Numbered from the stretch's first letter, positions 2,204 to 35,926 are shown. The stretch is 64,000 bases of DNA from an uncultured Christensenella sp. (GCA_905193155.1 CAJJNQ010000005.1:6814-70813), one strand, 5' to 3'. Translations and numbers: made by a program. Notes: a model not told the origin generated them from the letters alone.

Positions 2204-2439
2204 ACCAAACCTCCAACAAACGCATCGTTATTTAACAATCATTGTATCATCTTTCCCCGCGTTTGGATAGTTTATTTTTGCTGTTTTTCCGGCAGGATTT
2301 TTTGTGGCTTTGGTCGAATAGTGTGAATTGGCGTATTTGACCCGACTGTGCGCTGCGGAGCTTTTTTCGCCGCACCGACAGAGTCTATGCGCAAAATATA
2401 GAGATGAGAAATCACACCCATAGGAGGCGGACATCCTTT

Positions 2440-18472: not shown

Positions 18473-18576
18473 TTAGATTGAGACGTGTTTCCAAAACCGA
18501 GTTTTGAACCACGTTCGGTTTTGATTTTCATTTTTCCCTGTTTTTTGACGGCGCAGTGTTCACTGCGCCTTTTTTC
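18473..18576 (+). ncRNA. Candidate ~100-nt small RNA or orphan leader ending in two terminator-like hairpins
   Basis: Hairpin 1 is caaaaccga (18492..18500) with tcggttttg (18515..18523), then attttcattttt. Hairpin 2 is ggcgcagt (18550..18557) with actgcgcc (18562..18569), then tttttt. No RBS or ATG ORF. Family not recognised. Confidence 0.3.
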
Positions 18577-18779
18577 TTGTCTAAATCGCTGTTATTCTGA
18601 ACTTTCGTACAAATTAACATTTAGAACGTTCGGATTTATCCATCTAAAAATTTTACAAAAAGCTGCTCTATCCAAAGAATGCCGCCGATTATACGTCTCC
18701 GAACAAGTTCAATACAGACTTATGCACAGTTACTGCATATATATTCATATTTATTCTCTTATCTTCCTCCTTCCTGCAC

Positions 18780-18808
18780 TTGACAAACCGCTCAAAATCT
18801 TATAGTGT
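18780..18808 (+). promoter_or_regulatory. Possible guaA promoter
   Basis: TTGACA at 18780..18785. The -10 candidates are TATAGT (18801..18806, 15-nt spacer) or TAGTGT (17-nt spacer). Neither spacing and hexamer pair is ideal. Confidence 0.4.
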
Positions 18809-20409: not shown

Positions 20410-20430
20410 GATTTACGCACGATTAAGCAC

Positions 20431-20477
20431 AAAACCCTGCAGCAGCTGATGTACTGCCGCAGGGTTTTGTGCTTTTT
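20431..20477 (+). terminator. guaA terminator
   Basis: aaaaccctgc (20431..20440) pairs with gcagggtttt (20459..20468), followed by gtgcttttt. Confidence 0.75.
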
Positions 20478-20520
20478 GCTTTCATCCAAATCTGATTGAA
20501 CGCACGTAGTACTTGCAAAT

Positions 20521-20557
20521 GCAAAATAGACGGCGTCGGATAAATCCGACGCCGTCT
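20521..20557 (-). terminator. Terminator after the peptide ABC operon
   Basis: agacggcgtcgga (20528..20540) pairs with tccgacgccgtct (20545..20557), 13 bp with a 4-nt loop. attttgc follows on the minus strand. Confidence 0.75.
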
Positions 20558-20572
20558 TAGTTTTACCCGATC

Positions 20573-22459
20573 TTATTCTTCGATCGTGCAGTACATGAAG
20601 TACTTGTAACCCAGGGGGTTAGAGTAGAAGCCATGCACGTTGCTGTCGAGCATATAAATATCGGTGTAGAAGTACAGGGGCACGATGCAGCCGGTCTGCA
20701 TCAGCATATCCTCAGCGATGTGCATCATGGCGTAACGGTTTGCAGAATCGGTGCAGGACTTGATGGAGGAAATCAGCACATCATAGGTCTGCGCCCAAGT
20801 GCCATTGGTCACGTTGACGTCATAACCGTAGGGAGTCAGATCCAGGTTGTAGATCGCAACATCGGCGTTCGCGCCCTTGCCGAACTGAACATCATTGTTG
20901 CCGGAAGCCGTGGTCCACATATCCAGGAAGCAGATCGGGTCGTTGTAGTCGGCCACCCAGCCGTTACGGGCGATGGAGTAATCGCCGTTCTTACGGGTGT
21001 TGAGGAAGGTCGCCCACTCCTGGTTCTCCAGGTTCATGGTGATGCCGACAGCGGCCAGCGCAGACTGCAGGTACTCACCGGTGGCCTTGTGGCTTTCACC
21101 GGTGTTGTACAGGTAAGTCAACGTGGGGAAATCGGTGAACTGCTGGGTCGCCTCGTCGAAGGTGTAGTACTTCTTCAGGGTCTCCACAGCGGTGTTAAAG
21201 TTGGACTCGAAGGAATCCTTGGACACATCGTAGTAGCCGTCGAAGGCGTCGTTGTGGCCGGCGTTCTGGTAGAACTGAGAACCATCGGCATCCGTCATGC
21301 CCATCGAAACGAAGGAGGAAGCGGGAACCTGACCGGCCTGGCCGATTTCCTCAACGATGTAGTTGCGGTCCAAGAGCAGGCCGATGGCGTTGCGGATCTC
21401 TTCCTTAGCCTTCTCGGCGTCCGCGCCGGTCAGCGTGGAGGAAGCGGGCAGGATTTCTTCATTGATGTTCCAGCAAACATAGTACGTACCAATCTGGCCG
21501 GCGACAACGAACTCATCCGGATATTCTTCCTTCAGGGAAGCGATCTCATTGGTGGGAACATCGTCGATCAGCTGCCAAGAACGGTTCTCGAAGTTGGAGA
21601 GCATGTTGTTGGCGTCATCGGACAGATAGAAGTTGATCGTGTCCATGGTGATGGCATCCGCATTATAGTAGTTGGGGTTCTTCTGCAGGGAGATCACACT
21701 GTTGTGATCCCAAGCAGCCATGGTGTACGGGCCGTTGCAGACATAGGTGGAAGGATCGGTCGCCCAGGCTTCGTTGGCCACAACATCCTCACGAACGGGG
21801 AAGTAGGCCGGGAAGGCGAGCAGCTCATTCCAGTAAGCAACTGTGTTGGACAGAGTCACCTGGAGGGTCTTGTCGTCCAGAGCAACGACATTCAGCTCCG
21901 CATCGGGGTTGACGTAGTTGCCTGCGTCGTCGGTCGCCCAAACATCCGCATAGCCGTCCACGACTTCGAACATGTAGCCGTAGTCCGCAGCCAGCGCGGG
22001 GGAAGCAGCGCGCTTCCAGGCAAAGGCGAAGTCACCGGCAGTAACAGGCTGGCCGTCAGACCAAGTCATGCCATCGCGCAGGGTGTAGGTGTAGGTCACA
22101 GTGCCGTCCTCGTTGGTCACGCCTTCAGGCAGCTCAGTGGCTGCATCTGCAACGATCTCGAGGTTGCCGTTTTCGTCCTGTGCCCACTTGGCCAGGCCGC
22201 TGAACAGGTGCGCCGTCAGGGTCGCGCCGTCCACGGCGGAGTTGAGCGCAGGATCAATGGTATCCGGTTCGGAAGCCAAGCAGACATTGATGACACTGGG
22301 TTCCGCATTATCTGCGGGAGCGTCAGCAGATTCGGCAGGCGCTTCCGCGCTTTCAGCGGGAGCATCCGTGGGCGCTGCGCTTTCGGCAGGCGTGCTGCTG
22401 CACGCTGCCAGCGAGAGCACCATAGCAAGAGCCAACACAAGAGCAAGGATCTTCTTCAT
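20573..22459 (-). CDS. Peptide/nickel ABC transporter substrate-binding lipoprotein (SBP family 5)
   Basis: 628 aa. Lipobox LSLAACSS, Ala/Glu/Pro linker, then an OppA/DppA-like body. Confidence 0.85.
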   Translation of the reverse strand: MKKILALVLALAMVLSLAACSSTPAESAAPTDAPAESAEAPAESADAPADNAEPSVINVCLASEPDTIDPALNSAVDGATLTAHLFSGLAKWAQDENGNLEIVADAATELPEGVTNEDGTVTYTYTLRDGMTWSDGQPVTAGDFAFAWKRAASPALAADYGYMFEVVDGYADVWATDDAGNYVNPDAELNVVALDDKTLQVTLSNTVAYWNELLAFPAYFPVREDVVANEAWATDPSTYVCNGPYTMAAWDHNSVISLQKNPNYYNADAITMDTINFYLSDDANNMLSNFENRSWQLIDDVPTNEIASLKEEYPDEFVVAGQIGTYYVCWNINEEILPASSTLTGADAEKAKEEIRNAIGLLLDRNYIVEEIGQAGQVPASSFVSMGMTDADGSQFYQNAGHNDAFDGYYDVSKDSFESNFNTAVETLKKYYTFDEATQQFTDFPTLTYLYNTGESHKATGEYLQSALAAVGITMNLENQEWATFLNTRKNGDYSIARNGWVADYNDPICFLDMWTTASGNNDVQFGKGANADVAIYNLDLTPYGYDVNVTNGTWAQTYDVLISSIKSCTDSANRYAMMHIAEDMLMQTGCIVPLYFYTDIYMLDSNVHGFYSNPLGYKYFMYCTIEE

Positions 22460-22512
22460 GGAAAACTCATCCTTTCGTTTTTTATCTTAAATATGCTCAT
22501 CGCATATTCAGA

Positions 22513-23502
22513 TCAGTTGATTTCGTTCACCTTGTGGCAGGCAACGAAGTGGCCGGAGGAAACCTCCTTGAATTCCGGCATACTTTCCGCGCACTGCTCA
22601 CCGGCATAGGGGCAGCGCGTGCGGAACGGGCAGCCGCTGGGCGCGTTGAGCGGGCTGGGAATATCGCCCGAGAGCACGATGCGCTGGTTGGCGCGCGCGA
22701 TCTTGGGATCCGGAACCGGCACGGCAGACAGCAGGGACTTGGAATACGGGTGCAGCGGATGATCGTAGATCTCCGAAGCACTTGCAAGCTCCACCATCTT
22801 GCCCAGATACATCACAGCGATGCGGTCGCTGATGTGACGCACCACGAGCAGATCGTGCGCGATGAAAAGATAGGTCAGCCCCAGCTGCTGCTGAAGCTCC
22901 GCAAACATATTGATGACCTGCGCCTGAATCGAAACGTCCAGAGCGGATACCGGCTCGTCGCAGACGACAAAGTCGGGGTTGACAGCAAGCGCTCGTGCGA
23001 TGCCGATGCGCTGACGCTGACCGCCGGAGAACTCGTGCGCATAGCGCGCCGCGTGTTCACTGTTCAGGCCGACATAGCTCATCAGCTCCAGAATGCGTTC
23101 CTGACGCTCCTTCTTGGAAGAATAGAGCTTATGGACATCCAGCGGCTCGCCGATGATATCCGCAACCGTCATGCGGGGATTCAGCGAAGAATACGGATCC
23201 TGAAACACCATCGAAGCCTTCTGGCGGAAGGCCTTGATATCGTCCTTCGTCACGATCTTCCTGCCGTGGTAGTAAATCTCGCCCGCCGTGGGCTTGTAAA
23301 GGTGCAGGATTGTGCGGCCGACGGTGGTCTTGCCGCAGCCGGATTCGCCGACCAGACCCAGCGTCTCGCCCGCTTTGATGGAGAAGCTCACATCGTCCAC
23401 GGCCTTGAGGGGCTTGGTGCGGAACAAACCCATATTGATATTGAAGTATTCTTTCAGGTTTCTTACATCGATGATCGGCTGTGCGTTTTCATTCTTGTTC
23501 AT
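22513..23502 (-). CDS. Oligopeptide/dipeptide ABC transporter ATP-binding protein (OppF-like)
   Basis: 329 aa. Walker [12 protein letters not shown], signature [16 protein letters not shown]-terminal oligopeptide-type extension with Cys pairs. Confidence 0.9.
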
Positions 23503-24539
23503 TTTTCAGCACCGCCTTTCTCTTCAGGGTTCTCCTCTGCTGCATCATCCAGCGAGATTGTGCCGTCCTCCACGCCCTTTTTGACGTTCATCCAACAGGC
23601 AGCCATATGATCCTGATTGATGACCATGCGCTCGGCGCAATGGTTCAGGCAGATCTTCATGGCGTTTTCGCAGCGCGGGGCGAAGGGGCAACCGACCGGC
23701 ATATTCAGCAGATCGATGGGTGTGCCCTTGATGGGTTCCAGCTTCATGCCGACGTTTTCGTTGGAGGGAATGGAACGCAGCAAGCCCTTGGTATACTCAT
23801 GAGCAGGGTTATAAAAGATCTCATCTGCCGTGCCCTGCTCGCAAATGGAACCGGCATACATGACAATGACTTCGTCGCACATCTGCGCCACAACGCCAAG
23901 GTCGTGGGTAATCAAGATGATCGCCATGCCGAGTTCCTTTTGCAGGGACTTCATCAGGTCGAGGATCTGCGCCTGGATTGTGACATCCAGCGCGGTGGTC
24001 GGCTCGTCGGCAATCAGGATATCCGGCTCGCACGCCAGCGCCATGGCGATCATGACGCGCTGGCGCATGCCGCCGGAAAACTCGAAGGGATACTGCTTCA
24101 TGCGTTTTTCCGGCTCGTTGACATTGACCAAGCGGAGCATTTCCACCGCGCGGTCATACGCCTGCTTGCGGTTGCGCTTGGTGTGCAGCATGATGGCCTC
24201 CATCAGCTGACGGCCGATGGTATAGGTCGGATTGAGCGAGGTCATGGGATCCTGAAAGATGATGGAAATGCGGTTGCCGCGGATGGTTTTCATCACCTTT
24301 TCGCCGGAACCGACCAGCTCCTGCCCGTCGAACTTGATCGAGCCGGAGGTGATTTTACCCGTTCCGGCAAGAATCTGCATGACGGAATAGGCCGTGACCG
24401 ATTTGCCCGATCCGGATTCGCCCACGATGCCGAGCACCTTGCCCCGCTCGAGGAAGAAGGACACGCCGTTAACCGCCTTTACCTCGCCCGCATCGGTGAA
24501 AAAGGAGGTGTGCAGGTCGTTGACTTCAAGCAAAGACAT
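23499..24539 (-). CDS. Oligopeptide/dipeptide ABC transporter ATP-binding protein (OppD-like)
   Basis: 346 aa. Walker [27 protein letters not shown]. 4-nt overlap with the OppF-like gene. Confidence 0.9.
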
Positions 24540-24557
24540 GATCTTTTCCTCCCTTCA

Positions 24558-25619
24558 TCAGCCGTTGAGCTTGGGGTCGAATGCATCGCGCAATCCGTCG
24601 CCGAAGAGGTTCAGAGAAAGCACGATCAGGGAAATCACAACAGCGGGAATCACCATTCGGTACGGATAAGAAGAAATGCCGTTCAGCGCATCCGACGCCA
24701 GAGAGCCAAGAGATGGCATCGGCGCATTGACACCCAGACCCAGGAAGGAGAGGAAGCTCTCCGTAAAGATCGCATTGGGAATCTGCAGGGCCGTCGAAAT
24801 GATGATGACGCTGATGCAATTGGGAATCAGATGCCGCGTGATGATCCATCTGCCGGAAGCGCCGGTCGCCTGTGCGGCAAGGACATATTCCTGCTCTTTG
24901 AGGGAAAGAATCTGTCCGCGGATTAGTCGGGACATCGAAACCCAGTACAGCACACCAAAGACAATAAACAAACTGATGATGTTGCTGCCGATCTGCTCCA
25001 GCACAGTGCCTTCCAGAGAATTGCCGATGGCGACCTTCAGCACCGAAGCCAGCAGAATGACCATCAGCATGTCGGGCAAAGAATAAATAATATCCACGAT
25101 GCGCATGATGAACAGATCAACCTTGCCGCCGCAGTAACCGGCGATGGAGCCGATCGTCATGCCGACGATGAGCACGATGATGCTGGCAAAGAAGCCTACC
25201 GCAAGGGAAATTCGCGTGCCGTAAACCACGCGGATGAAATAATCGCGTCCTGCCGAGTCCGTGCCGAAGATATGCGGGAATACTTTCTCCCCGGCATCAA
25301 TACGCACCTGTTCGCTCTTGCCGTATTCAAACGGCGCAAGGTTTTTAAACGAGGCATCCACGGGCTTGCCGGGCGTCACGCCCAACTGCTGCTCGTAGGA
25401 ATAGGGCCAGAACATCGGGAGAATGATCGCAGCCAGCGTAATAATCAGCACGATAATCAAGCTGACCATTGCGACTCTGTTTTTCATCAAGCGTCTGCAC
25501 CCATCCTTGAAAAAAGTACTGGATGGCCGCATTTGCACCATATAGGCTTTTTCTTCATCCGTTGCCGGAGTAAACGCATCCAGATCAACATGAAAGCTGA
25601 ACGGCTTTTTCTTCATCAT
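24558..25619 (-). CDS. Oligopeptide ABC transporter permease (OppC-like)
   Basis: 353 aa. N-terminal OppC-type extension, six TM-like segments, EAA-region AAQATGASGRWIITRHLIPN. Confidence 0.85.
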   Translation of the reverse strand: MMKKKPFSFHVDLDAFTPATDEEKAYMVQMRPSSTFFKDGCRRLMKNRVAMVSLIIVLIITLAAIILPMFWPYSYEQQLGVTPGKPVDASFKNLAPFEYGKSEQVRIDAGEKVFPHIFGTDSAGRDYFIRVVYGTRISLAVGFFASIIVLIVGMTIGSIAGYCGGKVDLFIMRIVDIIYSLPDMLMVILLASVLKVAIGNSLEGTVLEQIGSNIISLFIVFGVLYWVSMSRLIRGQILSLKEQEYVLAAQATGASGRWIITRHLIPNCISVIIISTALQIPNAIFTESFLSFLGLGVNAPMPSLGSLASDALNGISSYPYRMVIPAVVISLIVLSLNLFGDGLRDAFDPKLNG

Positions 25620-25631
25620 CTTTCTGCCTCC

Positions 25632-26495
25632 TTACTCCAGCTCGATCCGAGGATCGACGATTTTATAAAGAATATCGCTGACCAGATTCATGACGATAAC
25701 CAGAATTGCCAGCACAATGGTCGTGCCCATAATCAGCGTGTAGTCGCGGCCGGTAATGCTATTGACAAACGCACGGCCGATGCCGGGAACCGCAAAAATC
25801 TGCTCCACGACCAGCGAACCCGTGACGATATAGGCAATCATCGGGCCGGCATAGGTGATGACGGGGATGAGAGAATTCTTCAAAGCATGACCGAAAATGA
25901 TCCGGAAGCCCGGAACGCCCTTGGCTCTAGCCGTGCGGATATAATCCTGCCCCAGCACGTCCAGCATGGACGAGCGGGTCAAACGGGTGATATAGGCCAT
26001 CGGGTACAGGCCGAGGGTCACGATCGGGAGTATCAAGCCCGTCGTTGTGGAACCGTTTGCCGGCAACCAGCCGAGCTTGACGGAGAACACAATCAGCAGC
26101 AGCGAACCCATAATGAACGATGGCATCGAAACAAATGCAGTCGTAATCACCATGATGACTTTATCAATGATCCTGTTGCGGCGAAGCGCGGCAACCGCGC
26201 CGAATACGATGCCGAGAATCATCGCGCCGAAAGCTGCAATCAAGCCGAGCTTGGCAGAGGTCTTCATGCCGTCGCTGATGATATCGACGACCTGACGGCC
26301 GCGTTGCTTCAGGGACGGGCCGAAATCGAAGCGGGTTACAATATCCTTAAGATAGGTTCCATACTGCTCCAAAAGCGGCTTATCCAAACCATATTTGGCC
26401 TCCATGGCCGCCTGAACGGCAGGCGTCGTCGCCTTTTCTCCGACGAAAGGACCGCCGGGAACAGCACGCCAATTTCCAACAGAAAAACGCAGCCC
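25632..26495 (-). pseudogene. OppB-like permease gene, 5'-truncated: missing about 28-30 N-terminal codons (TM1). First usable start is ATG at 26405
   Basis: Track ORF 25632..26405 starts MEAKYGLDKP. In-frame upstream codons still read ...RAVPGGPFVGEKATTPAVQAA (the OppB PGGPF region). They run into an in-frame TGA at 26498..26496 inside the upstream terminator hairpin. No ATG, GTG or TTG lies in between. Confidence 0.55.
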
Positions 26496-26527
26496 TCAGT
26501 CATCATACCGAAGGCTGCGTTTTTTTG
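26481..26527 (-). terminator. Terminator closing the pilus operon
   Basis: acgcagcc (26487..26494) pairs with ggctgcgt (26513..26520). T-runs on both strands (tttttct on the minus strand). Confidence 0.75.
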
Positions 26528-26564
26528 CTTTATTTGCATTCTGACAAACCAGCGTTTTCTTCGC

Positions 26565-27209
26565 TCACGCGTACGCGCGCTCTTCGAGCACGCAGCGCAC
26601 CGTCACGCGGGATTGGCCACCGACTGTGCAGGTAAACAGCGTCATATCCCAATCCCCGCTCGTCATCTTTTCAACCGCAAAAGGTGAAAGAATCTCCATC
26701 TCAGCGGTTCTATATCGAAATACATTTCCGTCCATGTCTGTGAAGATTACTTCTTCACCCTGCGGCAGGTCTTTCAGCCGTCCAAAATGACTGCGGTAGT
26801 TATGAGCAGCGATCACCATGTTGTTCAGATAGACAGAACCCGCATAACGGCAAGGAGCAGTTCTCAAATTGGAATAACTCCATTCACCGATCACAGGCAG
26901 ATCCAGCGACAAAGCCGGTATGGTCAACACACCGCTATATTCCTGACCGTCTACTTCCTCCTGCGGCATATCCATTTCCGGGTTCAGCACATAATCTGGA
27001 ATATAGGCCTCCTCCAATGACTCGCCGGATGGGAGATCAGGCAGGCTCATATTGATGTGCTCCTGAATATCGGAGTTCAGCTGCTCGAGAACCCGTTCGG
27101 ATGAATCCCCCGCCGCCTTATCGCACCAAAGATTATAAGCCGCAAGAAGGAGCGCCGCCGTCAGCAGCAGCAGCCCCATCCCCATGCAGATCTTGCTTTG
27201 TTTACTCAT
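26565..27209 (-). CDS. Sortase (transpeptidase), class not assigned
   Basis: 214 aa. N-terminal TM, VIAAHNYRSHFGRL (catalytic His region), MTLFTCT (TLxTC-type Cys), SRVTVRC (Arg). 8-nt overlap with the upstream pilin gene. Confidence 0.8.
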   Translation of the reverse strand: MSKQSKICMGMGLLLLTAALLLAAYNLWCDKAAGDSSERVLEQLNSDIQEHINMSLPDLPSGESLEEAYIPDYVLNPEMDMPQEEVDGQEYSGVLTIPALSLDLPVIGEWSYSNLRTAPCRYAGSVYLNNMVIAAHNYRSHFGRLKDLPQGEEVIFTDMDGNVFRYRTAEMEILSPFAVEKMTSGDWDMTLFTCTVGGQSRVTVRCVLEERAYA

Positions 27210-28458
27210 GATCCCTATTCTTTCTCGAAGCAGTTCCCACGATCAAAAAAGCCAGCCCCGTCACAGCGAGGATTGGTACCGGCCACCAGAGCACACCTGT
27301 CTGAGGCAGCTTCTGCTTGCTCAGCATATTGGTGAGCACAAATGTATCGCCATTCAGCCGAACAGCGGATCGATAGCCGGAAACCGCAGCCTCGCGAATC
27401 GTCCAGCTGATTTCCTTACCGCTTTGATCTACCTTGGGAAGCTTATCCCATGTGTACTGCCACCCGTTTGCTTCACTCAAGGTTCGGGTTTCAAAAGCAA
27501 CGTCGTTTTGCAGCAGCGTCACCTGCACCGATTCCGGACGGCGATTCTCATACCCCTGATCATCCCATACTTTCAGCACCGTCCGCGTGACGGTATCTCC
27601 CGACGGCGGATCGGGCGCATAGGTATTTGTGACGGTAAAGGTGATCCCCTCGGCACTGATGAGCACCGTGTAATGGGGAAGCTCCTTTTCCACCACACTC
27701 CAGATGATCTTGGAACCGTCCCGGTTATATTCGGGAAGCTTTCCCCAGAAATGCCGCCAGCTGTTCGCCTCGCTGAGGATCACTGTGTCGTATACAATGT
27801 TGTCCTTGAGAAGCTGAACTGTGACTTGCTGCGGACGGAGCTGAGGAATATCCTTCTTCCATACCTTCAGAACCTTGCGGTCGACCGTCTGTTCGGACGG
27901 TACAGGCGGATTTTCCGTCTGCGTATGCTTGGGAACTGCGGTCACATCGTATGACCAAACGTCGCTTTCCTTCTGGGGATTGGGCAAAGAAACCAGAAAC
28001 GGCTCGGTGATGTAGGTAAAACCGTCCTTCACCAGCTTCCGGCCGATAACCAGATACAGGCCCGGCTTCAAGCCCGCCTGCTGATTCGGGAAACGGAGGA
28101 TCCCCTGCCCGCCCGTCTTTCCGCTATCCAAGGGCTTGAGTTGATCCCGATCCGCGTACACAGCGAGTGTTTCCGCAAGGCTTTTCCACGCATCGGCAGA
28201 TAGACCGTTGACCGAGACAGGATACTTCCGGAAATCCCCCGCAAGGGAAAACTCCGCATAGGCATCCACATCGGCCACAAAATACAGGTCAAAAGGCACA
28301 TCTGATACCGGTTTTTTGCTGTGCCTGAATTCAATCGTGAGGCGCACGTCCCTGTTCAGGTCGATCACAGCGGCTGCAAACGTCTGAGCAGGGAACAGGG
28401 CGAGCACGCACAGCAAACACAGCAAGCCTGTGATCACTCGGCTACTCAGTTTTCGCAT
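27202..28458 (-). CDS. LPXTG-anchored minor pilin / CnaB-repeat surface protein (LPQTG)
   Basis: ORF 27202..28521. I prefer the ATG at 28458 (MRKLSSRVITGLLCLLCVLALFPAQTFA signal peptide). Two CnaB-like repeats (VLKVWKKDIPQLRPQQVTVQLLKDN..., VLKVWDDQGYENRRPESVQVTLLQND...). C-terminal KLPQTG, then TM, then RKNRDHE. Confidence 0.85.
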   Translation of the reverse strand: MRKLSSRVITGLLCLLCVLALFPAQTFAAAVIDLNRDVRLTIEFRHSKKPVSDVPFDLYFVADVDAYAEFSLAGDFRKYPVSVNGLSADAWKSLAETLAVYADRDQLKPLDSGKTGGQGILRFPNQQAGLKPGLYLVIGRKLVKDGFTYITEPFLVSLPNPQKESDVWSYDVTAVPKHTQTENPPVPSEQTVDRKVLKVWKKDIPQLRPQQVTVQLLKDNIVYDTVILSEANSWRHFWGKLPEYNRDGSKIIWSVVEKELPHYTVLISAEGITFTVTNTYAPDPPSGDTVTRTVLKVWDDQGYENRRPESVQVTLLQNDVAFETRTLSEANGWQYTWDKLPKVDQSGKEISWTIREAAVSGYRSAVRLNGDTFVLTNMLSKQKLPQTGVLWWPVPILAVTGLAFLIVGTASRKNRDHE

Positions 28459-29287
28459 TTTTCTTTCCTCCGTCCGATTTCTTTTTCTTCCCCGATACCA
28501 GCAGGATGAACAGCAGTGCAAGAAGCATCGGCAGGGCTACGGCGGGCGCAACGATCAGGGGATCAATCTCCATGGCGTCCGAAGTGACTCGGATCTCCTC
28601 TGATTCATTTTCCACGCGGTGGCCGCGCACCAGAAGCCGGTGGGAGTTGACGCCGTAAGGCGTGCACGTGACGAGGGTGCACAGATCCTTCCCTTTTTCG
28701 ATTGCCAGTGCGGACAGGTCGTTCGGCTCGACAATCAGGATCTGATCCACTTCATAGGTCATCACTTCGTCCAACACGCGGATCACAAACTTATCCCCTG
28801 CCACCAGCTTATCCAGATTGGTAAAGAGCTTCGCGCTGGGAAGACCGCGATGCCCAGACAGAACGCAGTGGGTGCCTTCCCCCCCTACCGGCAAGCTGGA
28901 CCAGTCCAGATGCCCAACGGCGATCTGAAGCACCTCGTCCTCCGTGCCATGATAGATGGGTAGAGAAATTTGGATGGTCGGGATCTCAATATATCCCATG
29001 ACGCCCGTCCCATTGACGTCAAGGAGTGCATTGTATGTGCTGCGATCGCTTTCGGAAAGGAAGAAGGCCTTGTATCTGCCGGGGAGCGCCGCGTTATACT
29101 CCCTTGCTTCCCCGATCAAGCGGTCGTATTTATCGGCATTGAGGTTTCTCACCTCTTCGGAATAGGTTGCCACCGCCTGGGACGCATGGAAGGAATTCCA
29201 ATAGTCGCTCAAGGAGGGATACAGAAGCAAGGACAGTCCTGCAAAAAACACCAGAATCAGCAGCATCGTTGAGAGTTTTCTTTTCAT
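28442..29287 (-). CDS. Class C (pilus-polymerising) sortase
   Basis: 281 aa. N- and C-terminal TM helices, VLSGHRGLPSAKLF, TLVTCTPYGVNSHRLLVRG. Confidence 0.9.
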   Translation of the reverse strand: MKRKLSTMLLILVFFAGLSLLLYPSLSDYWNSFHASQAVATYSEEVRNLNADKYDRLIGEAREYNAALPGRYKAFFLSESDRSTYNALLDVNGTGVMGYIEIPTIQISLPIYHGTEDEVLQIAVGHLDWSSLPVGGEGTHCVLSGHRGLPSAKLFTNLDKLVAGDKFVIRVLDEVMTYEVDQILIVEPNDLSALAIEKGKDLCTLVTCTPYGVNSHRLLVRGHRVENESEEIRVTSDAMEIDPLIVAPAVALPMLLALLFILLVSGKKKKSDGGKKNAKTE

Positions 29288-29409
29288 TCGCAGGATTCTC
29301 CTTGCTGCTGTAGGGACGGCGCGCGGAAAAACGCTCCGCCCCCTTTGCAGCCATTTTTTGAGGGTTTGCCGGCGCGTCCGCTTTGATCGCGTCAGCGCCC
29401 GCTCATTTT

Positions 29410-30942
29410 TCAGTCGTCGGTCTTATTCATACGCTTTTTCGTGACGAGAACAACACCCGCCCCCACAGCCAGCAGGCCGCCGAGGAGATAGAACACGGTG
29501 GTGCCGACGCCGCCGGTTTCAGGAAGGGTCGAACCGGTTTTGTTTACAATATTTGTACTCAGCGCATCGGAGGCCACAGCCGTGCCGACCATAACCGTCA
29601 CGCTCGTGTAATCGGAGCCATCCTCCACATAGGAAGCGGAGATCTTGAACTGTACAGGCTCGGACAGCAGATTATAGCCACCGGGCGCTTTTGTCTCATA
29701 CAAATAGTAATCAATGGTATCGTCCAGTCCCTTGATAACGGGATCGCCTGCCTCGATCACATAAACAACGTTCGCATCGCCGTCCATTGCAACGCGGTAT
29801 ACGCCATTGGCGGCCTTCACCATGCCGATAAGCCCCGTGGTAACAGCAGGAATGCCTTCATCATTGCAGTTCATATCCGCAACCTTGAGTGCGCCGTTTT
29901 TAGACAGGGCAAGCTTTGCGCCGGTCAACGCTTTGCCGGTTTCGTCCACCTTGTTGACGCCCATCTTGAACGTCCAGTCATAGACCTTCTTTTCAGGGGT
30001 CTTTCCTTTCTCGGTGTCAACATTGGGATTGTTGCTGTATTCAAGATAAGCCGCGTTTTCCTGCTTTCCCTCGTCATACGCCTTGGCGTCAGCATTCAGC
30101 ACACCGGTATAGTAAGTAAAAAGCTCATTGTCATGGGCCATCTTTCCATCCTGAATCGCCTTGAGAATATCGACCCGGACGGAAAAGCTATTGCCGTTTG
30201 CGGTTACGGTGTAATACTCGGCAGGGAGCACAGTTGCATCGTTGACCTTGATCGTGACATCTGCGCTGGTCTTGACATTGGAAGTCAGTCCGGCAGACAT
30301 GGTATCGTGGATGATATAGTCGTATTTTGTGTAACCCGATGTATTGGGAACCTTGGTGATAGTGCGGAACTCAACGGTGTCTCCGATCTGGTTGTCGCCC
30401 ACAACACCCCATTCGCCGTTTTCATTATGCTTGATCTGCTTATTCAGTGTCGGCTTATCGCCCTTCGGAGCTGCGATCACGTTTCCGACAACCTTCATCA
30501 AATAGGCTGTATAGAAATCGTCTGCACCGGTGAGGGTATTGTCACTATCCTTGACCAGATAGTAACCGGGATTCAGATTGGTAATCGTATAGATACCGGC
30601 TCCGGCAGTGCTCACAGAGGGATTGGTCAGATATGACGCAACCGCCTTAGCAAAGGCACGCGCATCTTCCTCCGTGGTCAGGCTTTTTGCCTTTTCAGCT
30701 GCATTACCGAGCGCTGTCTGTCCTTCCGCCGTGATCCCGCTGCCCCACACAATGTCGGTAAGCACGGTCTTTCCCTCAACGGTCTGAAGGTCGCCCGCAA
30801 AGATCTGGTATGCCTGATAGGTATGGCCGGTCGATGAATTGGTGATGGTGATGGTGTACGATTCTCCCGCCGCAAGCGCGGATACGCCCAGTGCAAGCAC
30901 CAGCGCAAGCGTCAGCAGGAAAGCCAAAGCTCGTTTTATCAT
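29410..30942 (-). CDS. Major (backbone) pilin, SpaA/isopeptide-type, LPETG sorting signal
   Basis: 510 aa. Signal peptide, N-terminal TGHTYQAYQIFAGDL, E-box-like YYLYETKAPGGYNLL, C-terminal LPETGGVGTT, then TM, then KKRMNK. Confidence 0.85.
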   Translation of the reverse strand: MIKRALAFLLTLALVLALGVSALAAGESYTITITNSSTGHTYQAYQIFAGDLQTVEGKTVLTDIVWGSGITAEGQTALGNAAEKAKSLTTEEDARAFAKAVASYLTNPSVSTAGAGIYTITNLNPGYYLVKDSDNTLTGADDFYTAYLMKVVGNVIAAPKGDKPTLNKQIKHNENGEWGVVGDNQIGDTVEFRTITKVPNTSGYTKYDYIIHDTMSAGLTSNVKTSADVTIKVNDATVLPAEYYTVTANGNSFSVRVDILKAIQDGKMAHDNELFTYYTGVLNADAKAYDEGKQENAAYLEYSNNPNVDTEKGKTPEKKVYDWTFKMGVNKVDETGKALTGAKLALSKNGALKVADMNCNDEGIPAVTTGLIGMVKAANGVYRVAMDGDANVVYVIEAGDPVIKGLDDTIDYYLYETKAPGGYNLLSEPVQFKISASYVEDGSDYTSVTVMVGTAVASDALSTNIVNKTGSTLPETGGVGTTVFYLLGGLLAVGAGVVLVTKKRMNKTDD

Positions 30943-31008
30943 GGAACCTCTCCTTTTATCCTGTTTTTTGTAAATGAGTTGTCGGCATGCGCAAACCGAT
31001 TCAGGAGG

Positions 31009-34000
31009 CTACATCGTCCTCCTTTCCCCTTTGCGCCTCCGGCTGCATCCCAGTAGGAAGCCTGCCGCCAGCATGAGCGCACCGCTCAACGTGAACAAAG
31101 CGCTTCCCGGTCCGCCCGTTTCAGGGAGAACGTAATCCGACTGGATGCGGGTGTTCGTGATGATAAAAATATTTCCTTCGCGCTCGATATTCACCTCAAA
31201 GTCTTGAATCGGGATCTCTTCAACGGAGTAGTCATATGTCACCGTCTGACCCTCCGTATTCTCGCCGGTCAGCGGCAAATCCGTAAGCGTTTGCTCCCAT
31301 CCGTTTTCCGCCGAGAGCATCAGCTTGCCATAGACCGTCTTGGCGTTTTCGTTCCCATCCGGGATCTGATAGATACTGATCTCGATGCTGGGCACCGTTA
31401 TCTCCATCAGGTCTGAGCCGTCCTTCGCTTTCCAGAGCTTTTTAACGATCACAGAGATGCCGTCTCCCTCGGATTTGTCATTGGAGATCTGGATATGTCC
31501 CCCATTTTCTATGCTTCGTCCGTTAAAGTCATCCGGATGAGCGTACGGAGGCTTCTGGTCCTTATCCTCCATCCAGAAGAAGACCGGATCGCTCTTCAGA
31601 ACATAGTGTGTCGGCGCTTTTGTTTCAACCAACTTATACGCCACGTTCGGCTCCAGCGAAGTCAGCTTGATGGTTCCATCGGAATCCGTCGTCCACGGAT
31701 CCGCTGTATGCACCTTTTCCCAGTCCGTCCCCTCCCACTTGAAGAGATCAAACTCTGCTCCCGGCAGCACGACTCCCACGTTGCCCGTTTCGACCTTCTG
31801 TACGAAGATATGGCGCTCATCGGGTTCCGGCTCGTCGCCCGGGTCTTGAGGTTCGGTGATTTTTCCGAGGAAATCCGTTCGGTGGGACTCGGCGTTTACA
31901 TTTACACGGTCCGCTACGACGGTTCCGTTCAGATTTTGCCCGATATTGACGGTTGCTCCGGGCGCAATCACCGCGCCCGTCATCAGGTGGGTATGGATCG
32001 TGACGCCGCCGGCGTTCACAAAATTCCAAATCACCTTGCCCGCATAGAATTCCGTCACCTCGCCGACCCCTTGCTCCTGACCGTCAATGACGACCCTTGC
32101 CTGCGGAAGGTAGACCTGCGAAACGCCTGCGCAGTCCACATTGATGATGACCGTCCCGTTGTGGCCGGACCGAAAGCCGTCGATTTGCAATTTTCCGCCA
32201 AATTTTGACGCAAGCTCAGATGCACGGATCGACTCAACCCCTACGTCAGACGGCCTGCGCAGGATCAGCTTGCTGTGATCCGCCTGCAATTCCGATGCGG
32301 ATTTGAAGTCCAGATTTGCTTCGCGGAAGCCGCTCAATCTGGCCGAGATCCGCTCGATCTCTCTCCTTACGCGGTTCAGATCGATGAACGGGTCTTGCTC
32401 AGTATTCCTATCCTGAACCAAATGGCGCGGTCTGCTGATTTTTGTGCCGTTGATTGAAAACGCATTTCCATTGTCTGTAAAATCAACCGTATTCCCGCTG
32501 CCGATGGCCAGCACATGATCATTCCCGGAGGCGCTGTCGGGATGAACCTGAGCATATTCCTGAATATAGCTCAACTCATGAGGATACTGATTCGTACCGA
32601 AGTTGCTTCGGGCAAACAGTTTTTTAGCCAGCACATTGCCGTTCGTATGGGTAGACAGCGTCGCCGTGTCGAACGCAACAATATGGAAGCTGCCTGCCGT
32701 CCCGAGAGGGCTGTTGGAATTGTAGTATCTGGAATACTCCGGGTCGCGCAGAAAGCGATCCTTGACGTCGTTATACTGAAGATCGTAATTTCCGGCAATC
32801 AGTTTGTCCGGAGTCCCTAAGCGCACAAACAGAAACTCCGTGCTGTGGGGGAAGGAATCGTCGGACACCGTCAGGGAAGTCACATTTCCATCTCCATCAA
32901 GGACAGGACGATATTCCTTCGGCTCCGTAGGCTCGCTTTGGGGATTTCTGCAATAGTAGAACTTCAGCTCATCCTCAGGCTCCACATGGGCAAACAGCCC
33001 GCTTTGCCAGTTCATGACCAACTCATACTTTCCATACGGGGAAACACTCTGATCGTTGTTATCCTTCCTGACCAGATCGATCTTGTAGATCGCCGTTTTC
33101 TCAATGGTGTGTCCATGAGCCGCAAAGGAGTTCAAAATGTTCTGATAATCCGCCGCATCTTGAATTCTGATCCGGAGGCTGTATTCTTCAGGCGCATATC
33201 CGATATTTTCATCAAGAAGCGTAAGGGACGCCGTCAAACCTGACGACTCATCCGTATAGGTAAAGGTTTTTCCGTTTTTCGTCTCCGGCGGCGCGCTCCT
33301 CATTGCGATGCAGGATTGGTCATGCTTATGTTCCTGAAACTGGCAAAGGAGTGTCCCCTGCGCGTCCCTGCACGCCTCTGTGTGCGTATGTTCCGGCAAT
33401 CCGCATCCAAAGATGACGTTTTTATCTACACAGTCCTCCGTGTGGACGTGCTCCGGGATACTGCAAATCAGGGCATGGCTTTCATCATAGCATTCTTCCT
33501 TGTGGGTGTGTTCGCCCATGCCGCAGTGATACATGATCTCGGGCACTTCTGTAACGTCGTAACACGAGGCGTCATGCCGGTGCTCCTCCTTCCCGCAGAT
33601 CAGAACCTTCTTTTCTTCGGCAGAGTCAAAGCAGGCCTGGCTGTGTTGATGGCAAAGAGTCTGCACCTTTCCGCAGGCAAGGACGCCATTTGTATAGCAA
33701 GCCTCGGTGTGTTCATGCGGAATGGCTTCTCTCTGCGTGCAGATCAGGCTTTGCCGCGTCTTTTTACATTCTTCCGCATGGGTATGAGGCTCCTGCTCTT
33801 CTTTACCGCAGACGAGGGAAATTTCTTCGGTATAACAGTCCGCGCCATGCGTGTGCTCCTCGCTTTCCTCCAAGCCGCAGCTCAGCACCTGTTTTTGCTC
33901 ATAGCACTGTTCCGAATGCCGGTGTCCTTCGCTTTCCTCAAGACCGCAAACAAACTCCGTTTCCTCTGCATAACAAGAATCCGTATGCGCATGCTCCGGG

Positions 34001-34374
34001 ATCTCCGGCAAGGTGCAGATCAGATCCCCGTCTGAGGAAAAGCAGTTGGCGTCATGCTTGTGGATCACAAAGTCCGAATATCCGCAAATCAGGCTTCCAT
34101 CTGCACCATAGCACGCATCGCTATGGCTGTGCACCGGCTGCTCGCAGTGCAGACCCGAAGCCCCCATCTGCGTCTCATAACAGGATTCATCATGAGCATG
34201 AACTTCTTTCCCGCAGCCAGGCGTTTGAGTCAGCGTGAGTGCAGGCAAAATCAAGGCATATGTCGTACAGAATACCACGATGCAGCTCAGAACCGTTACG
34301 ACCTTGCGCCAGCGGTTTCTGCGGGCGCGGACGCGGCGGTAGCCGGTAATCTGCTCCGACAGGCGTTGTCTCAC
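31009..34374 (-). CDS. Pilus tip adhesin candidate: signal/TM, 14 Cys/His repeats, Ig-like region, choice-of-anchor-A-like domain, SpaA-like and CnaB-like domains, LPETG
   Basis: 1121 aa. PLGTAGSFHIVAFDTATLSTHTNGNVLAKKL resembles choice-of-anchor A. LPGAEFDLFKWEG...YKLVETKAPTHYVL is SpaA-like. ISVIVKKLWKAKDG... is CnaB-like. C-terminal VLPETGGPGS, then TM, then RRRKGERR. Confidence 0.85.
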   Translation of the reverse strand: MRQRLSEQITGYRRVRARRNRWRKVVTVLSCIVVFCTTYALILPALTLTQTPGCGKEVHAHDESCYETQMGASGLHCEQPVHSHSDACYGADGSLICGYSDFVIHKHDANCFSSDGDLICTLPEIPEHAHTDSCYAEETEFVCGLEESEGHRHSEQCYEQKQVLSCGLEESEEHTHGADCYTEEISLVCGKEEQEPHTHAEECKKTRQSLICTQREAIPHEHTEACYTNGVLACGKVQTLCHQHSQACFDSAEEKKVLICGKEEHRHDASCYDVTEVPEIMYHCGMGEHTHKEECYDESHALICSIPEHVHTEDCVDKNVIFGCGLPEHTHTEACRDAQGTLLCQFQEHKHDQSCIAMRSAPPETKNGKTFTYTDESSGLTASLTLLDENIGYAPEEYSLRIRIQDAADYQNILNSFAAHGHTIEKTAIYKIDLVRKDNNDQSVSPYGKYELVMNWQSGLFAHVEPEDELKFYYCRNPQSEPTEPKEYRPVLDGDGNVTSLTVSDDSFPHSTEFLFVRLGTPDKLIAGNYDLQYNDVKDRFLRDPEYSRYYNSNSPLGTAGSFHIVAFDTATLSTHTNGNVLAKKLFARSNFGTNQYPHELSYIQEYAQVHPDSASGNDHVLAIGSGNTVDFTDNGNAFSINGTKISRPRHLVQDRNTEQDPFIDLNRVRREIERISARLSGFREANLDFKSASELQADHSKLILRRPSDVGVESIRASELASKFGGKLQIDGFRSGHNGTVIINVDCAGVSQVYLPQARVVIDGQEQGVGEVTEFYAGKVIWNFVNAGGVTIHTHLMTGAVIAPGATVNIGQNLNGTVVADRVNVNAESHRTDFLGKITEPQDPGDEPEPDERHIFVQKVETGNVGVVLPGAEFDLFKWEGTDWEKVHTADPWTTDSDGTIKLTSLEPNVAYKLVETKAPTHYVLKSDPVFFWMEDKDQKPPYAHPDDFNGRSIENGGHIQISNDKSEGDGISVIVKKLWKAKDGSDLMEITVPSIEISIYQIPDGNENAKTVYGKLMLSAENGWEQTLTDLPLTGENTEGQTVTYDYSVEEIPIQDFEVNIEREGNIFIITNTRIQSDYVLPETGGPGSALFTLSGALMLAAGFLLGCSRRRKGERRTM
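33310..34215 (-). repeat. Coding tandem repeat: 14 units of C-x(4-7)-H-x-H-x(3)-C, period about 20-23 aa (residues 54-355 of the tip adhesin)
   Basis: HAHDESC, HSHSDAC, HKHDANC, HAHTDSC, HRHSEQC, HTHGADC, HTHAEEC, HEHTEAC, HQHSQAC, HRHDASC, HTHKEEC, HVHTEDC, HTHTEAC, HKHDQSC. Each is preceded by a Cys 4-7 residues before the first His. 29 Cys in about 300 aa. Confidence 0.9.
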
Positions 34375-34392
34375 TTTGATTTCCCTCCTTTG

Positions 34393-34983
34393 CTATCGAA
34401 TCGGGCCGAAGCTGTGCAATGGCCAGATACAAAAAAGTACTTTGCCGACGATTTGATCTTGCGCGATACAACCTACCGCCGAATTTCTGGAATCAACGGA
34501 GACCGAGCGATTATCCCCCATCAGGAAATAACGGTTATCCGGCACCTGATACGGCAGGTCGATATTGGTCTGTCCCAGCGATTTTTCCGCGAGATAGGGC
34601 TCGTCCAGTTCCTCATTGTTGACAAAAACGTTCCCGTCTTCGTCGATAAAAACCCAATCCGACGCGCCGGCGATGAATCTCTTGATCAGGAGCTTGTTTC
34701 CATGATAAAACGCGGCAATATCTCCCGCCTTAAAGTCATTTGTCTTCAAAGAGATCACAAGCTGGCCATCCTTCAGCGTTGGCGACATCGAGCTGCCATA
34801 AATGCGCAGCACCGGCATCCAGAGCGTCGCAACCAGCACCGCAACCGCTGCAACGACCAGCAGCACCGCAACCGTGCTCTTCAGCGTTTTTCCATAACGC
34901 GCCTTATAGCGCAGGCGATCCCTTTCCCGTTCGATTTGCTCCGCCGTGGGTAGGCTGACAGGTCTTTTATTCCTTCCGCTCAT
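34393..34983 (-). CDS. Signal peptidase I (S26 family), pilus-locus associated
   Basis: 196 aa. TM anchor, GSSMSPTL (Ser box), LIKRFIAG (Lys box), GDNRSVSVDSR. Confidence 0.9.
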   Translation of the reverse strand: MSGRNKRPVSLPTAEQIERERDRLRYKARYGKTLKSTVAVLLVVAAVAVLVATLWMPVLRIYGSSMSPTLKDGQLVISLKTNDFKAGDIAAFYHGNKLLIKRFIAGASDWVFIDEDGNVFVNNEELDEPYLAEKSLGQTNIDLPYQVPDNRYFLMGDNRSVSVDSRNSAVGCIAQDQIVGKVLFCIWPLHSFGPIR

Positions 34984-34986
34984 CTC

Positions 34987-35460
34987 TTATCCGCCTCTTT
35001 TTACAAGCGCTTGCACTTCCGGATGCGCTGCGACAAGCTCATGGACGCGCCTTTCAAAGCGATCCCACTTTTGCTCCATCTGGCGATCCGCCTCGGCGAG
35101 CGTAATCTTCGCCTTTTGTTCCGCATCCCGGACGATCCAGGCTGCCTGGCGCTCCGCCCCTTGCAAGATCGACTGCCGCTGCTTTTCCGCCTGATCCACT
35201 CCGGCTTTCAGTTCCGACGCTGCCGCCTGAAGGGACAGCAGATATTGATCCGCCGCTGCCTGCGCTGCCTCAAAGACGCCGTTTAAGCCCATGGCCGCCT
35301 CCGCGATGGAACCCGCGTTGGAGATATGGATCTCTCTGTCCGCAAGCGCTTTTTCAAGCCGCTTCACCTGAGCAGCAGCCGCCTCGTTTTGCTTTTGCAG
35401 CTCATAGATAATTTCGATCAATTCCACGCGGCTCAGGTGTTGTAGTTCCTTATCCGTCAT
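34987..35460 (-). CDS. Conserved coiled-coil protein of unknown function
   Basis: ORF 34987..35505. I prefer the ATG at 35460 (MTDKELQHLSRVELIEIIYELQKQNE...) with GGAGGA 6 nt upstream. Ala/Gln/Glu-rich heptads. AGSIAEAAMGLNGVFEAAQAAADQYL segment. 3-nt gap to the signal peptidase gene. Confidence 0.65.
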   Translation of the reverse strand: MTDKELQHLSRVELIEIIYELQKQNEAAAAQVKRLEKALADREIHISNAGSIAEAAMGLNGVFEAAQAAADQYLLSLQAAASELKAGVDQAEKQRQSILQGAERQAAWIVRDAEQKAKITLAEADRQMEQKWDRFERRVHELVAAHPEVQALVKRGG

Positions 35461-35661
35461 CAGCTCTCCTCCGGTCATCCTACAGGGGTCTGGAAAAAAT
35501 CCCACGGAAGTCCTTCATCCGGTGCTAAACCGCGCATCTGTTGCAGCAGCAAACAGATAAATGCCATTCCTCCGTAAAGGAAGCATCGCGCGGCTATCCT
35601 CTCTCCTGTTTTACCCCTTCCCCATCGAAGAGGCTTAACTAACAATTAAAGTTGTTTTAAT

Positions 35662-35690
35662 ATTGTATCACATTGATCCATATAAATCAA
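35662..35690 (-). promoter_or_regulatory. Strong sigma-A promoter (extended -10) for the pilus operon
   Basis: Minus strand TTGATT (35690..35685), 17-nt spacer, TGaTACAAT (-10 at 35667..35662). Sits in a tract of about 20% GC. Confidence 0.6.
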
Positions 35691-35835
35691 TAGATTTACG
35701 TTTTTTTGAGATATTTATTTATTTGCATTGCAATAAAACTTAATAAAAGTGAAGTAAAGCTTTTAAAAACATATCTATCATGTCGGATTGAACGCCGAGC
35801 AGAAAGGCTTCCAAATTCCATAAAACGCTTTTTTT

Positions 35836-35882
35836 CGAAAAAAAATCCGCTGCGCCCCGATGATTTCGGGAAGCGCGGCGGA
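35836..35882 (-). terminator. Terminator after the 2-hydroxyacid dehydrogenase gene
   Basis: tccgctgcgc/cccga (35846..35860) pairs with tcggg/gcgcggcgga (35866..35882). tttttttt follows on the minus strand. Confidence 0.8.
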
Positions 35883-35926
35883 ATACTAGTCTGAATCATT
35901 CAAAAAATCATGATCTTTTCATTGTT

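Follow-up and report, generated by a model that had tools for sequence, protein, structure and literature searches.

A chromosomal operon likely to encode a SpaA-type sortase-assembled pilus in an uncultured Christensenella sp.

A 64,000-nt stretch of DNA from an uncultured Christensenella sp. (GCA_905193155.1, CAJJNQ010000005.1:6814-70813; the whole stretch is called the window below) carries a block of genes for surface proteins and sortases among genes of core metabolism. A preliminary description, made from the sequence alone, took positions 26481–35690 to be a self-contained sortase-pilus locus of lower GC content, acquired horizontally and devoid of recognisable mobility genes. The locus therefore raises two questions: what does it build, and how did it come to lie where it does? 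The answer we consider likely is that it is a chromosomal operon of a human-gut member of the Clostridia for a SpaA-type, sortase-assembled heterotrimeric pilus, which would work by the mechanism set out below, and that it was gained horizontally long ago and has since become fixed.

Gene calling across the window recovered seven co-directional open reading frames (ORFs) on the minus strand, spanning 26565–35460 and in the order first reported. The tight junctions were also as described: the ORFs are 3 nt apart at 34983/34987 and overlap by 17 nt at 28442/28458 and by 8 nt at 27202/27209. Searches with Pfam and NCBIfam profiles agreed with the functions originally proposed for the seven products, namely a coiled-coil protein (which has no family match), a type I signal peptidase, a tip adhesin, a backbone pilin, a class C sortase, a minor pilin and a second sortase. 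Coordinates of these genes are given below as each is discussed, and all are on the minus strand.

The order of the pilin and sortase genes, tip–backbone–sortase C–basal, is the canonical pilus layout. The backbone (major) pilin (29410–30942, 510 aa) scores 106.9 bits against the SpaH/EbpB profile NF033902 (cutoff 95) and also matches GramPos_pilinBB, SpaA, the isopeptide domain TIGR04226 and the LPXTG anchor. It has a canonical short signal peptide, an E-box (YETKAPGGY), an LPETG sorting signal and a candidate lysine motif, AAPKGD, at aa 158–163. The class C (pilus-polymerising) sortase (28442–29287, 281 aa) reaches 276.3 bits with NF033745, for which the cutoff is 160, and has TLVTC at its active site and a transmembrane anchor at its C-terminus. 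The minor, putatively basal, pilin (27202–28458) is 418 aa long, a length also called in conspecific contigs, and has two CnaB domains (Cna_B, 144 bits over two stretches), an ordinary short signal peptide and a distinct sorting signal, LPQTG. The second sortase (26565–27209, 214 aa) contains a Sortase domain (61 bits) in which the His, the TLFTC motif and the Arg are present. It fits none of the curated classes C, D, E or GN, its best scores being 24–30 bits against NCBIfam cutoffs of 140–165, and its best PDB match is Bacillus anthracis SrtA (2kw8, E = 3e-4); we regard it as a putative anchoring sortase. Together with the tip adhesin (31009–34374, 1121 aa), which matches pAdhesive_15/choice-of-anchor A, SpaA, CnaB and the LPXTG anchor in Pfam and NCBIfam, these genes supply what characterises a SpaA-type cluster: a class C sortase, a major pilin with LPXTG signal, E-box and lysine, and tip and basal pilins with sorting signals.

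The same genes could instead specify LPXTG adhesins that are anchored to the wall individually, along with their sortases, and form no polymerised fibre. Such a reading would suit the non-canonical context of the backbone lysine, as well as the membership of the tip adhesin in a family with many cargo domains, found in very large proteins that perhaps act as monomers. A class C sortase scoring well above its cutoff, a SpaH/EbpB pilin that also exceeds its cutoff and carries both an E-box and TIGR04226, and the canonical gene order all argue for a polymerised pilus, and we consider monomeric adhesins quite improbable.

Two further genes precede that for the tip adhesin. The type I signal peptidase (34393–34983) scores 105 bits against Peptidase_S26 and 113.7 bits against TIGR02227 (sigpep_I_bact, cutoff 47). 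It has an intact Ser/Lys dyad and boxes B, D and E (motifs GSSMSPTL, IKRFIAG and GDNRSVSVDSR), and on alignment to Staphylococcus aureus SpsB the Ser and Lys fall on the catalytic positions. Its place in the gene cluster suggests that it may be dedicated to the pilus system. The first gene of the cassette specifies the coiled-coil protein (34987–35460), which is 157 aa long here and in conspecific contigs and has neither a signal peptide nor a transmembrane segment. Matches to DivIVA and ATP-synt_B were weak and below cutoff, and no significant family or PDB match was found. Proteins at the equivalent position are 60% identical in contig L101 and 51% identical in L103, two of the related cassettes described below, and a protein so consistently encoded by the first gene may serve in the cytoplasm as a regulator or chaperone.

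The most unusual feature of the locus lies within the tip adhesin. This protein comprises a 53-aa leader, a repeat region (aa 54–355), a beta-rich region (aa 367–555), a choice-of-anchor A / ice-binding-like beta-helix (aa 556–836), SpaA and CnaB domains, and an LPETG signal with its anchor. The AlphaFold2 (AF2) model has predicted local distance difference test (pLDDT) values of 80–97 over aa 367–1078 and low values over the repeats, and a Foldseek search with the model, confident over aa 367–1078, returned the tip and backbone pilins SpaC, PitA, RrgB and BcpA as well as an ice-binding protein. The N-region of the leader is very basic, and the hydrophobic core, VVFCTTYALILPA-x-T, hardly varies across 40 homologues, with A45 and T47 at plausible -3/-1 cleavage positions. 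The leader is followed by a Cys/His array (33310–34215, minus strand) of 14 units of about 23 aa, with the consensus C-G-L-E-E-x-E-G-H-T-H-x-E-x-C-Y-x5-L-[IV]. The spacing in a unit is C-x7-H-x-H-x3-C, the first gap ranging over x(2-9) across units, and the region is acidic, containing 29 Cys, 31 His and 60 Asp/Glu in 307 residues. Tandem Repeats Finder detected no DNA-level repeats within the array.

This leader-repeat arrangement is widespread. Between 2 and 33 Cys/His units occur in each of the 119 tip homologues listed (119/119), starting almost always near residue 54, and they are fused to varied C-terminal domains, including CHAP, vWA, ricin lectin, DUF7601 and choice-of-anchor A. When aa 1–365 were used in a HMMER search of 1.84 billion representative proteins (clusters at 50% identity), 4,582 proteins matched at E<=1e-3 and 3,214 at E<=1e-10, the bearers of the module reaching 3,899 aa in length. 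No Pfam (even at E<=10), NCBIfam or PDB sequence match to the Cys/His region was found, either here or in four homologues. For three repeat units modeled by AF2 with a 65-row alignment, one model had a pLDDT of 78.7 and the other four 40–46, and Foldseek gave no PDB analogue of the three-unit model at E<=0.001. Literature searches returned no description of the repeat motif, nor of pili in this lineage. The C/H/H/C ligand spacing of this undescribed array prompts the guess that the units might bind metal. Tentatively, and as a proposal that could well prove wrong, the leader and the 23-aa units may be viewed as an undescribed, very widespread module at the N-terminus of tip adhesins and giant surface proteins of Gram-positive bacteria, in which the units would be extracellular, Cys2His2-like metal-binding beads forming a metal-dependent stalk or sensor at the pilus tip, with the signal peptidase and coiled-coil protein as an export and processing system dedicated to leader-bearing proteins.

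The preliminary description had the genes bounded by one strong promoter and one terminator. The second of these is very strong: the intrinsic terminator (26481–26527, minus strand) has an 18-bp stem between A- and U-runs, folds at -39.4 kcal/mol (z=-5.9) and was also recovered as inverted repeat I3. The promoter-like site (35662–35690, minus strand) is less striking. It reads TTGATT-17 nt-TACAAT with a TG extended -10, in a tract of about 23% GC, and in a consensus scan it was a 9/12 match of a kind that occurs at chance frequency, 8 such sites being found against 8.5 expected from shuffled sequences. Yet the site is kept in 12/12 conspecific contigs compared, the cassette on L103 has a perfect TTGACA/TATAAT at the equivalent position, and the site in the window is a putative promoter of the operon. 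A 5' untranslated region (UTR) of about 200 nt would follow. A riboswitch or other leader element in it was considered and dropped, because the Rfam search of the window recovered no family and the fold of the 5' UTR is not significant (z=-1.64). An invertible promoter or a homopolymer phase switch was also rejected, the conspecific contigs being all collinear and tract variation trivial. Within the operon, a GC-rich, structured intergenic hairpin (29288–29409, minus strand; RNA fold z=-2.66) separates the genes for the backbone pilin and sortase C; by stabilising or attenuating the transcript it may determine the pilin:sortase stoichiometry.

Taken together, the gene products suggest the following mechanism. 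A single transcript would run from the AT-rich promoter to the strong terminator, and the three pilins would be exported by Sec and processed by the co-encoded signal peptidase I, which by its sequence should be catalytically intact. The main substrate of this enzyme is likely to be the tip adhesin, with its long, basic and almost invariant leader ending in A45-x-T47. The class C sortase would join first the LPETG of the tip, then the LPETG of successive backbone subunits, to the backbone lysine by isopeptide bonds; the LPQTG basal pilin would terminate growth of the fibre, and the small second sortase would attach it to peptidoglycan. The steps of polymerisation, basal termination and wall anchoring follow SpaA-type pilus assembly as summarised in PMC8088525. 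The tip would then display the choice-of-anchor A / ice-binding-like beta-helix, with the acidic array of 14 C..HxH...C units, probably metal-binding, at its extreme distal end. The cassette encoding all this would by now be fixed and immobile.

How the cassette reached this position is harder to read. Its base composition had been offered as a sign of acquisition, with spot counts put at 43–53% GC inside the locus and about 62% in flanking genes, and the direction of that contrast holds while its size does not. The locus has 53.3% GC, compared with 57.8% for the rest of the window (57.1% for the whole window), and the immediate flanks ldhA, oppB and oppC have 53–54%; only the promoter tract, mentioned above, falls far lower. 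At the level of codons the difference is significant. The GC content at third codon positions (GC3) is 0.632 in the seven genes (0.59–0.67) and 0.753 in the 41 other genes of the window (0.66–0.82, median 0.76; Mann-Whitney p=2.7e-8), and the codon usage of the seven genes lies farther from the pooled usage (p=1.4e-4). The cassette thus deviates in composition as a genomic island would, with a modest effect.

The position of the cassette within the species was examined using neighbouring genes. All contigs that encode the exact OppC of the window (at least 10 places), retrieved with a query that is independent of the pilus genes, carry the seven genes directly upstream of opp. A look-up with the coiled-coil protein and a metagenome scan with ldhA gave the order ldhA–cassette–opp again; the ldhA scan yielded few conspecific contigs, and the cassette was present on every one of sufficient length to show it. 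One short, low-coverage metagenome contig (L116, 815–1232) matches the ldhA of the window to residue 268 and then diverges; a variant, an insertion and a chimera are all conceivable. The fixed site in all conspecific contigs sampled means that this is not a strain-variable island.

A different picture was obtained from the nearest sister lineage (e.g., NCBI GCA_002492415.1), which was reached through AsnA, a more useful anchor than OppC, and has guaA on one side and ldhA-melibiase-AsnA-DapF...Gdh on the other, with identities to the window of 87% for guaA, 78.5% for ldhA, 84% for the melibiase, 84% for AsnA and 93% for Gdh. Nucleotide homology to the sister contigs (L132–L134) ends exactly at the stop codons of guaA (20409) and ldhA (35922–35925). 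Between these genes, the pilus genes are absent in this one syntenic sister lineage and the whole interval, including opp, is replaced by 6.3 kb of unrelated genes (L132 961–7297) encoding SRAP, an ABC ATPase with a 531-aa partner, MerR, EamA and a CsoR-like repressor. The corresponding lineage-specific interval of the window is 15.5 kb long (20410–35921) and holds the opp operon and the pilus cassette. It follows that 26481–35690, given at first as the limits of the island, is not a comparative boundary, since everything from 20410 to 35921 differs from the sister. As for whether ldhA and opp adjoin in relatives, the sister does lack the cassette but is missing opp as well, while the conspecific contigs sampled all carry the cassette.

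Other approaches to an empty site gave little. OppC relatives (84–88% identity) were all in unrelated contexts, so that none was found from the opp side, and AsnA relatives at 88% and 76% identity were rearranged, with no outgroup among them. The nearest named relative of AsnA, at 82% identity, is annotated as Candidatus Spyradocola (Christensenellales). A scan of GTDB with the ldhA-like protein produced nothing above 52% identity, using 8-mer patterns that missed the 78%-identical sister orthologue. Some conspecifics carry one or more GmrSD_N/HNH (type IV restriction-like) genes between oppA and guaA (L004 15214–16517, L007 15215–16519), and this insertion is absent from the window at the equivalent position (about 20410–20572). 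Such insertions again point to a hotspot on the guaA side of the interval.

Cassettes related to that of the window were found elsewhere. Contigs L101, L137 and L103 have the same seven genes in the same order at other genomic sites, with 50–78% amino-acid identity. In L101 and L137, whose hosts have a composition of about 49% GC, identities are 60% for the coiled-coil protein, 78% for the signal peptidase, 66% for the backbone pilin, 74% for sortase C, 71% for the minor pilin and 70% for the second sortase. In the tip adhesin, the 96% identical conspecific cluster is followed by homologues at 62–63% and then 53%, and in a search of 5.8 billion proteins no tip homologue of between 63 and 96% identity appeared among the 120 best matches listed. 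A dCache/PAS histidine kinase, a response regulator and an Rrf2 regulator lie directly upstream of the coiled-coil gene in both L101 (1531–5438) and L137 (194–4103), and L101 additionally has genes for a helix-turn-helix (HTH) protein and a resolvase upstream of the cassette; in the window, this position is occupied only by a 420-bp, non-coding, AT-rich region. The L103 cassette (50–64% identity; tip 53%) adjoins a tyrosine integrase.

These observations bear on whether the operon is simply ancestral at its site and vertically inherited, in which case the sister would have lost or replaced the guaA–ldhA interval and the low GC3 would reflect constraints on the genes themselves, for instance weak or condition-dependent expression or the composition of surface proteins, and not a foreign origin. 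Vertical descent would account for a sequence that is 96–100% identical and at the same site in every conspecific contig sampled, and for the absence of mobility genes and tRNA. Synteny in the clade is generally poor, and the native-looking opp operon also differs from the sister, so the arrangement in the sister could be the derived one. Vertical descent accounts less well for the GC3 deviation, which is seen in all seven genes, including those for the cytoplasmic coiled-coil protein and the enzymes; for the location of the nearest non-conspecific cassette, at another locus in an organism of about 49% GC; or for the lack of a 63–96% identical tip adhesin among the best-listed matches, even though the sister metagenome-assembled genome is in NCBI. 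Vertical descent from an ancestral operon is, in our judgment, unlikely. The presence of the module at different sites and in different compositions, its compositional deviation and its absence from the sister interval lead us to favour an old horizontal gain: the cassette probably entered a plastic guaA–ldhA interval long ago, before the species diversified.

Could the segment nevertheless be cargo of an integrative and conjugative element (ICE), an integrative and mobilizable element (IME) or a prophage that is still mobile, with the mobility genes outside 26481–35690? The related cassettes near a resolvase (L101) or a tyrosine integrase (L103) hint at such an association, as does an imperfect direct repeat (CGTTTTTTTG..TTTATTTGCATT) that flanks the cassette. 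The downstream copy lies at 26518–26540 and the upstream copy at 35699–35729; the 23/31-nt repeat is better than those in shuffled sequences (p about 0.003, in a post hoc test), and it is kept in conspecifics. A search of the junctions had been suggested and did find this repeat, but it is weak, AT-rich, recognised post hoc and missing from L101 and L103. No recombinase is encoded between guaA and ldhA or among the neighbouring genes, the position is identical in all conspecific contigs, and the tip family was not found in IMG/VR viral contigs. Current mobility is accordingly very improbable, far more so than vertical descent, and the flanking repeat is best treated as a curiosity that may be either a relic of insertion or a product of chance.

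The gene next to the locus had also been cited as evidence of acquisition, being a damaged oppB. The gene is certainly 5'-truncated: the remnant (25632–26462, minus strand) has no promoter, and its match begins at profile position 49 of Opp3B/OppB; it is followed by oppCDFA (20573–25619). The cause is a deletion of 384 bp at 26463–26469, where one GCGTGCT heptamer is retained. By blastn against 14 conspecific metagenome loci, the lost segment was found to be bounded by two copies of GCGTGCT, and contig L010, which is 100% identical on both sides of the junction, retains it (L010 8774–9157). The missing DNA comprises the opp promoter, which is AT-rich, and roughly 34 codons from the start of oppB. 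In most conspecific contigs, oppB is full-length (309–325 aa) and lies about 390 bp downstream of the second sortase of the same pilus locus, and the deletion is common only to the window and one conspecific contig. It is therefore a recent, strain-specific and microhomology-mediated event that is unrelated to the gain of the cassette, and damage to oppB was rejected as an insertion scar. With the opp promoter and the 5' end of oppB gone, this strain probably has no active Opp permease.

Of the original idea of horizontal acquisition without mobility genes, then, the composition, the absence from the sister and the occurrence of the cassette elsewhere still speak in its favour, while the oppB scar, the boundary and any variability among strains do not. 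Several points weigh against our reading as a whole. Neither an integrase nor a transposase is encoded at the locus, as was stated at the outset, and no tRNA gene was found there either; with the flanking repeat being weak, the features of mobility expected of an island are wanting, as is variation among conspecific strains, the cassette lying at the same site in every conspecific contig sampled, whether OppC, the coiled-coil protein or ldhA was used to find it. The comparison had a single sister lineage of conserved synteny and no outgroup, so that loss or replacement in the sister is possible. Genes for surface proteins may have atypical codon usage for other reasons. On the functional side, the backbone lysine motif is non-canonical (APKG rather than YPKN), promoter-like sites are not enriched over shuffles, the second sortase, signal peptidase and coiled-coil protein have been given their roles from context only, the AF2 confidence for the repeats is low in the full protein and inconsistent for three units, and metal binding is a guess from the ligand spacing.

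Two other features of the window were recorded outside the interval. An ORF at 2404–5517 (plus strand) encodes a protein of 1037 aa with a zinc-ribbon-like CPSCG start and no Pfam match at E<=1e-5. A 37% GC intergenic tract (18485–18805) separates the divergent carA and guaA genes, and no Rfam family was detected in it.

The locus adds a new and uncharacterised member, or a variant, to a well-known group, the sortase-dependent pilus clusters, and its interest lies less in its status as an island than in its content. It defines a conserved seven-gene pilus cassette common to poorly studied gut Clostridia, through which these bacteria might adhere to mucus, food particles or other microbes. It also brings to light a Cys/His repeat module, very large and unannotated, that sits distally on tip adhesins. 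Should the units prove to bind metal extracellularly, they would add a new structural element to the surface fibres of Gram-positive bacteria, and be a useful marker for annotating thousands of giant metagenomic surface proteins. The leader-repeat module, with its signal peptidase and coiled-coil partner, is the part most deserving of attention.

Among known systems, the closest in plan are the Corynebacterium diphtheriae SpaA-type pilus and the SpaCBA pilus of Lacticaseibacillus rhamnosus GG, which share tip, backbone and basal LPXTG pilins, a class C sortase, an E-box and CnaB/SpaA domains with the predicted pilus described here. The present locus departs from them in having a signal peptidase I of its own, an additional sortase that is unclassified, and a coiled-coil protein of the cytoplasm. 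Instead of a vWA or thioester domain, its tip carries a Cys/His array at the N-terminus and a choice-of-anchor A beta-helix. Regarded as an island, the locus has little to set it apart, since variable chromosomal regions that hold a pilus operon and no mobility genes are already known, VR-10B of Clostridium perfringens NE among them. That chromosomal locus of about 9 kb has seven ORFs, including three pilins, a signal peptidase and a sortase on one transcript, and is a variable region with an alternative allele and no mobility genes (PMC8088525). A two-component system adjacent to the cassette, as in L101 and L137, is a further likeness to VR-10B. The differences are that VR-10B relies on a class B sortase, has a CnaA tip that binds collagen and varies among strains, whereas the present locus has a class C and a second sortase, another kind of tip, and is fixed in the species.

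A dedicated, active type I signal peptidase for a fibre protein has a precedent in SipW and TasA of Bacillus subtilis. In Actinomyces oris, LepB2 is an extra, active signal peptidase I tied to a surface-fibre substrate (PMC9282373). Compared with both, the substrate here is only proposed, namely a tip adhesin with an unusually long, almost invariant leader. In the FCT region of Streptococcus pyogenes, a gene of the signal peptidase family, SipA/LepA, lies inside the pilus operon and is required for pilus formation, and SipA has lost both residues of the catalytic dyad, being inactive and chaperone-like (PMC4049620). SipA (4n31) and LepA (4k8w) are detectable homologues of the signal peptidase described here. 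Unlike SipA, however, this enzyme retains both dyad residues as well as boxes B, D and E, which makes proteolytic processing its likelier role.

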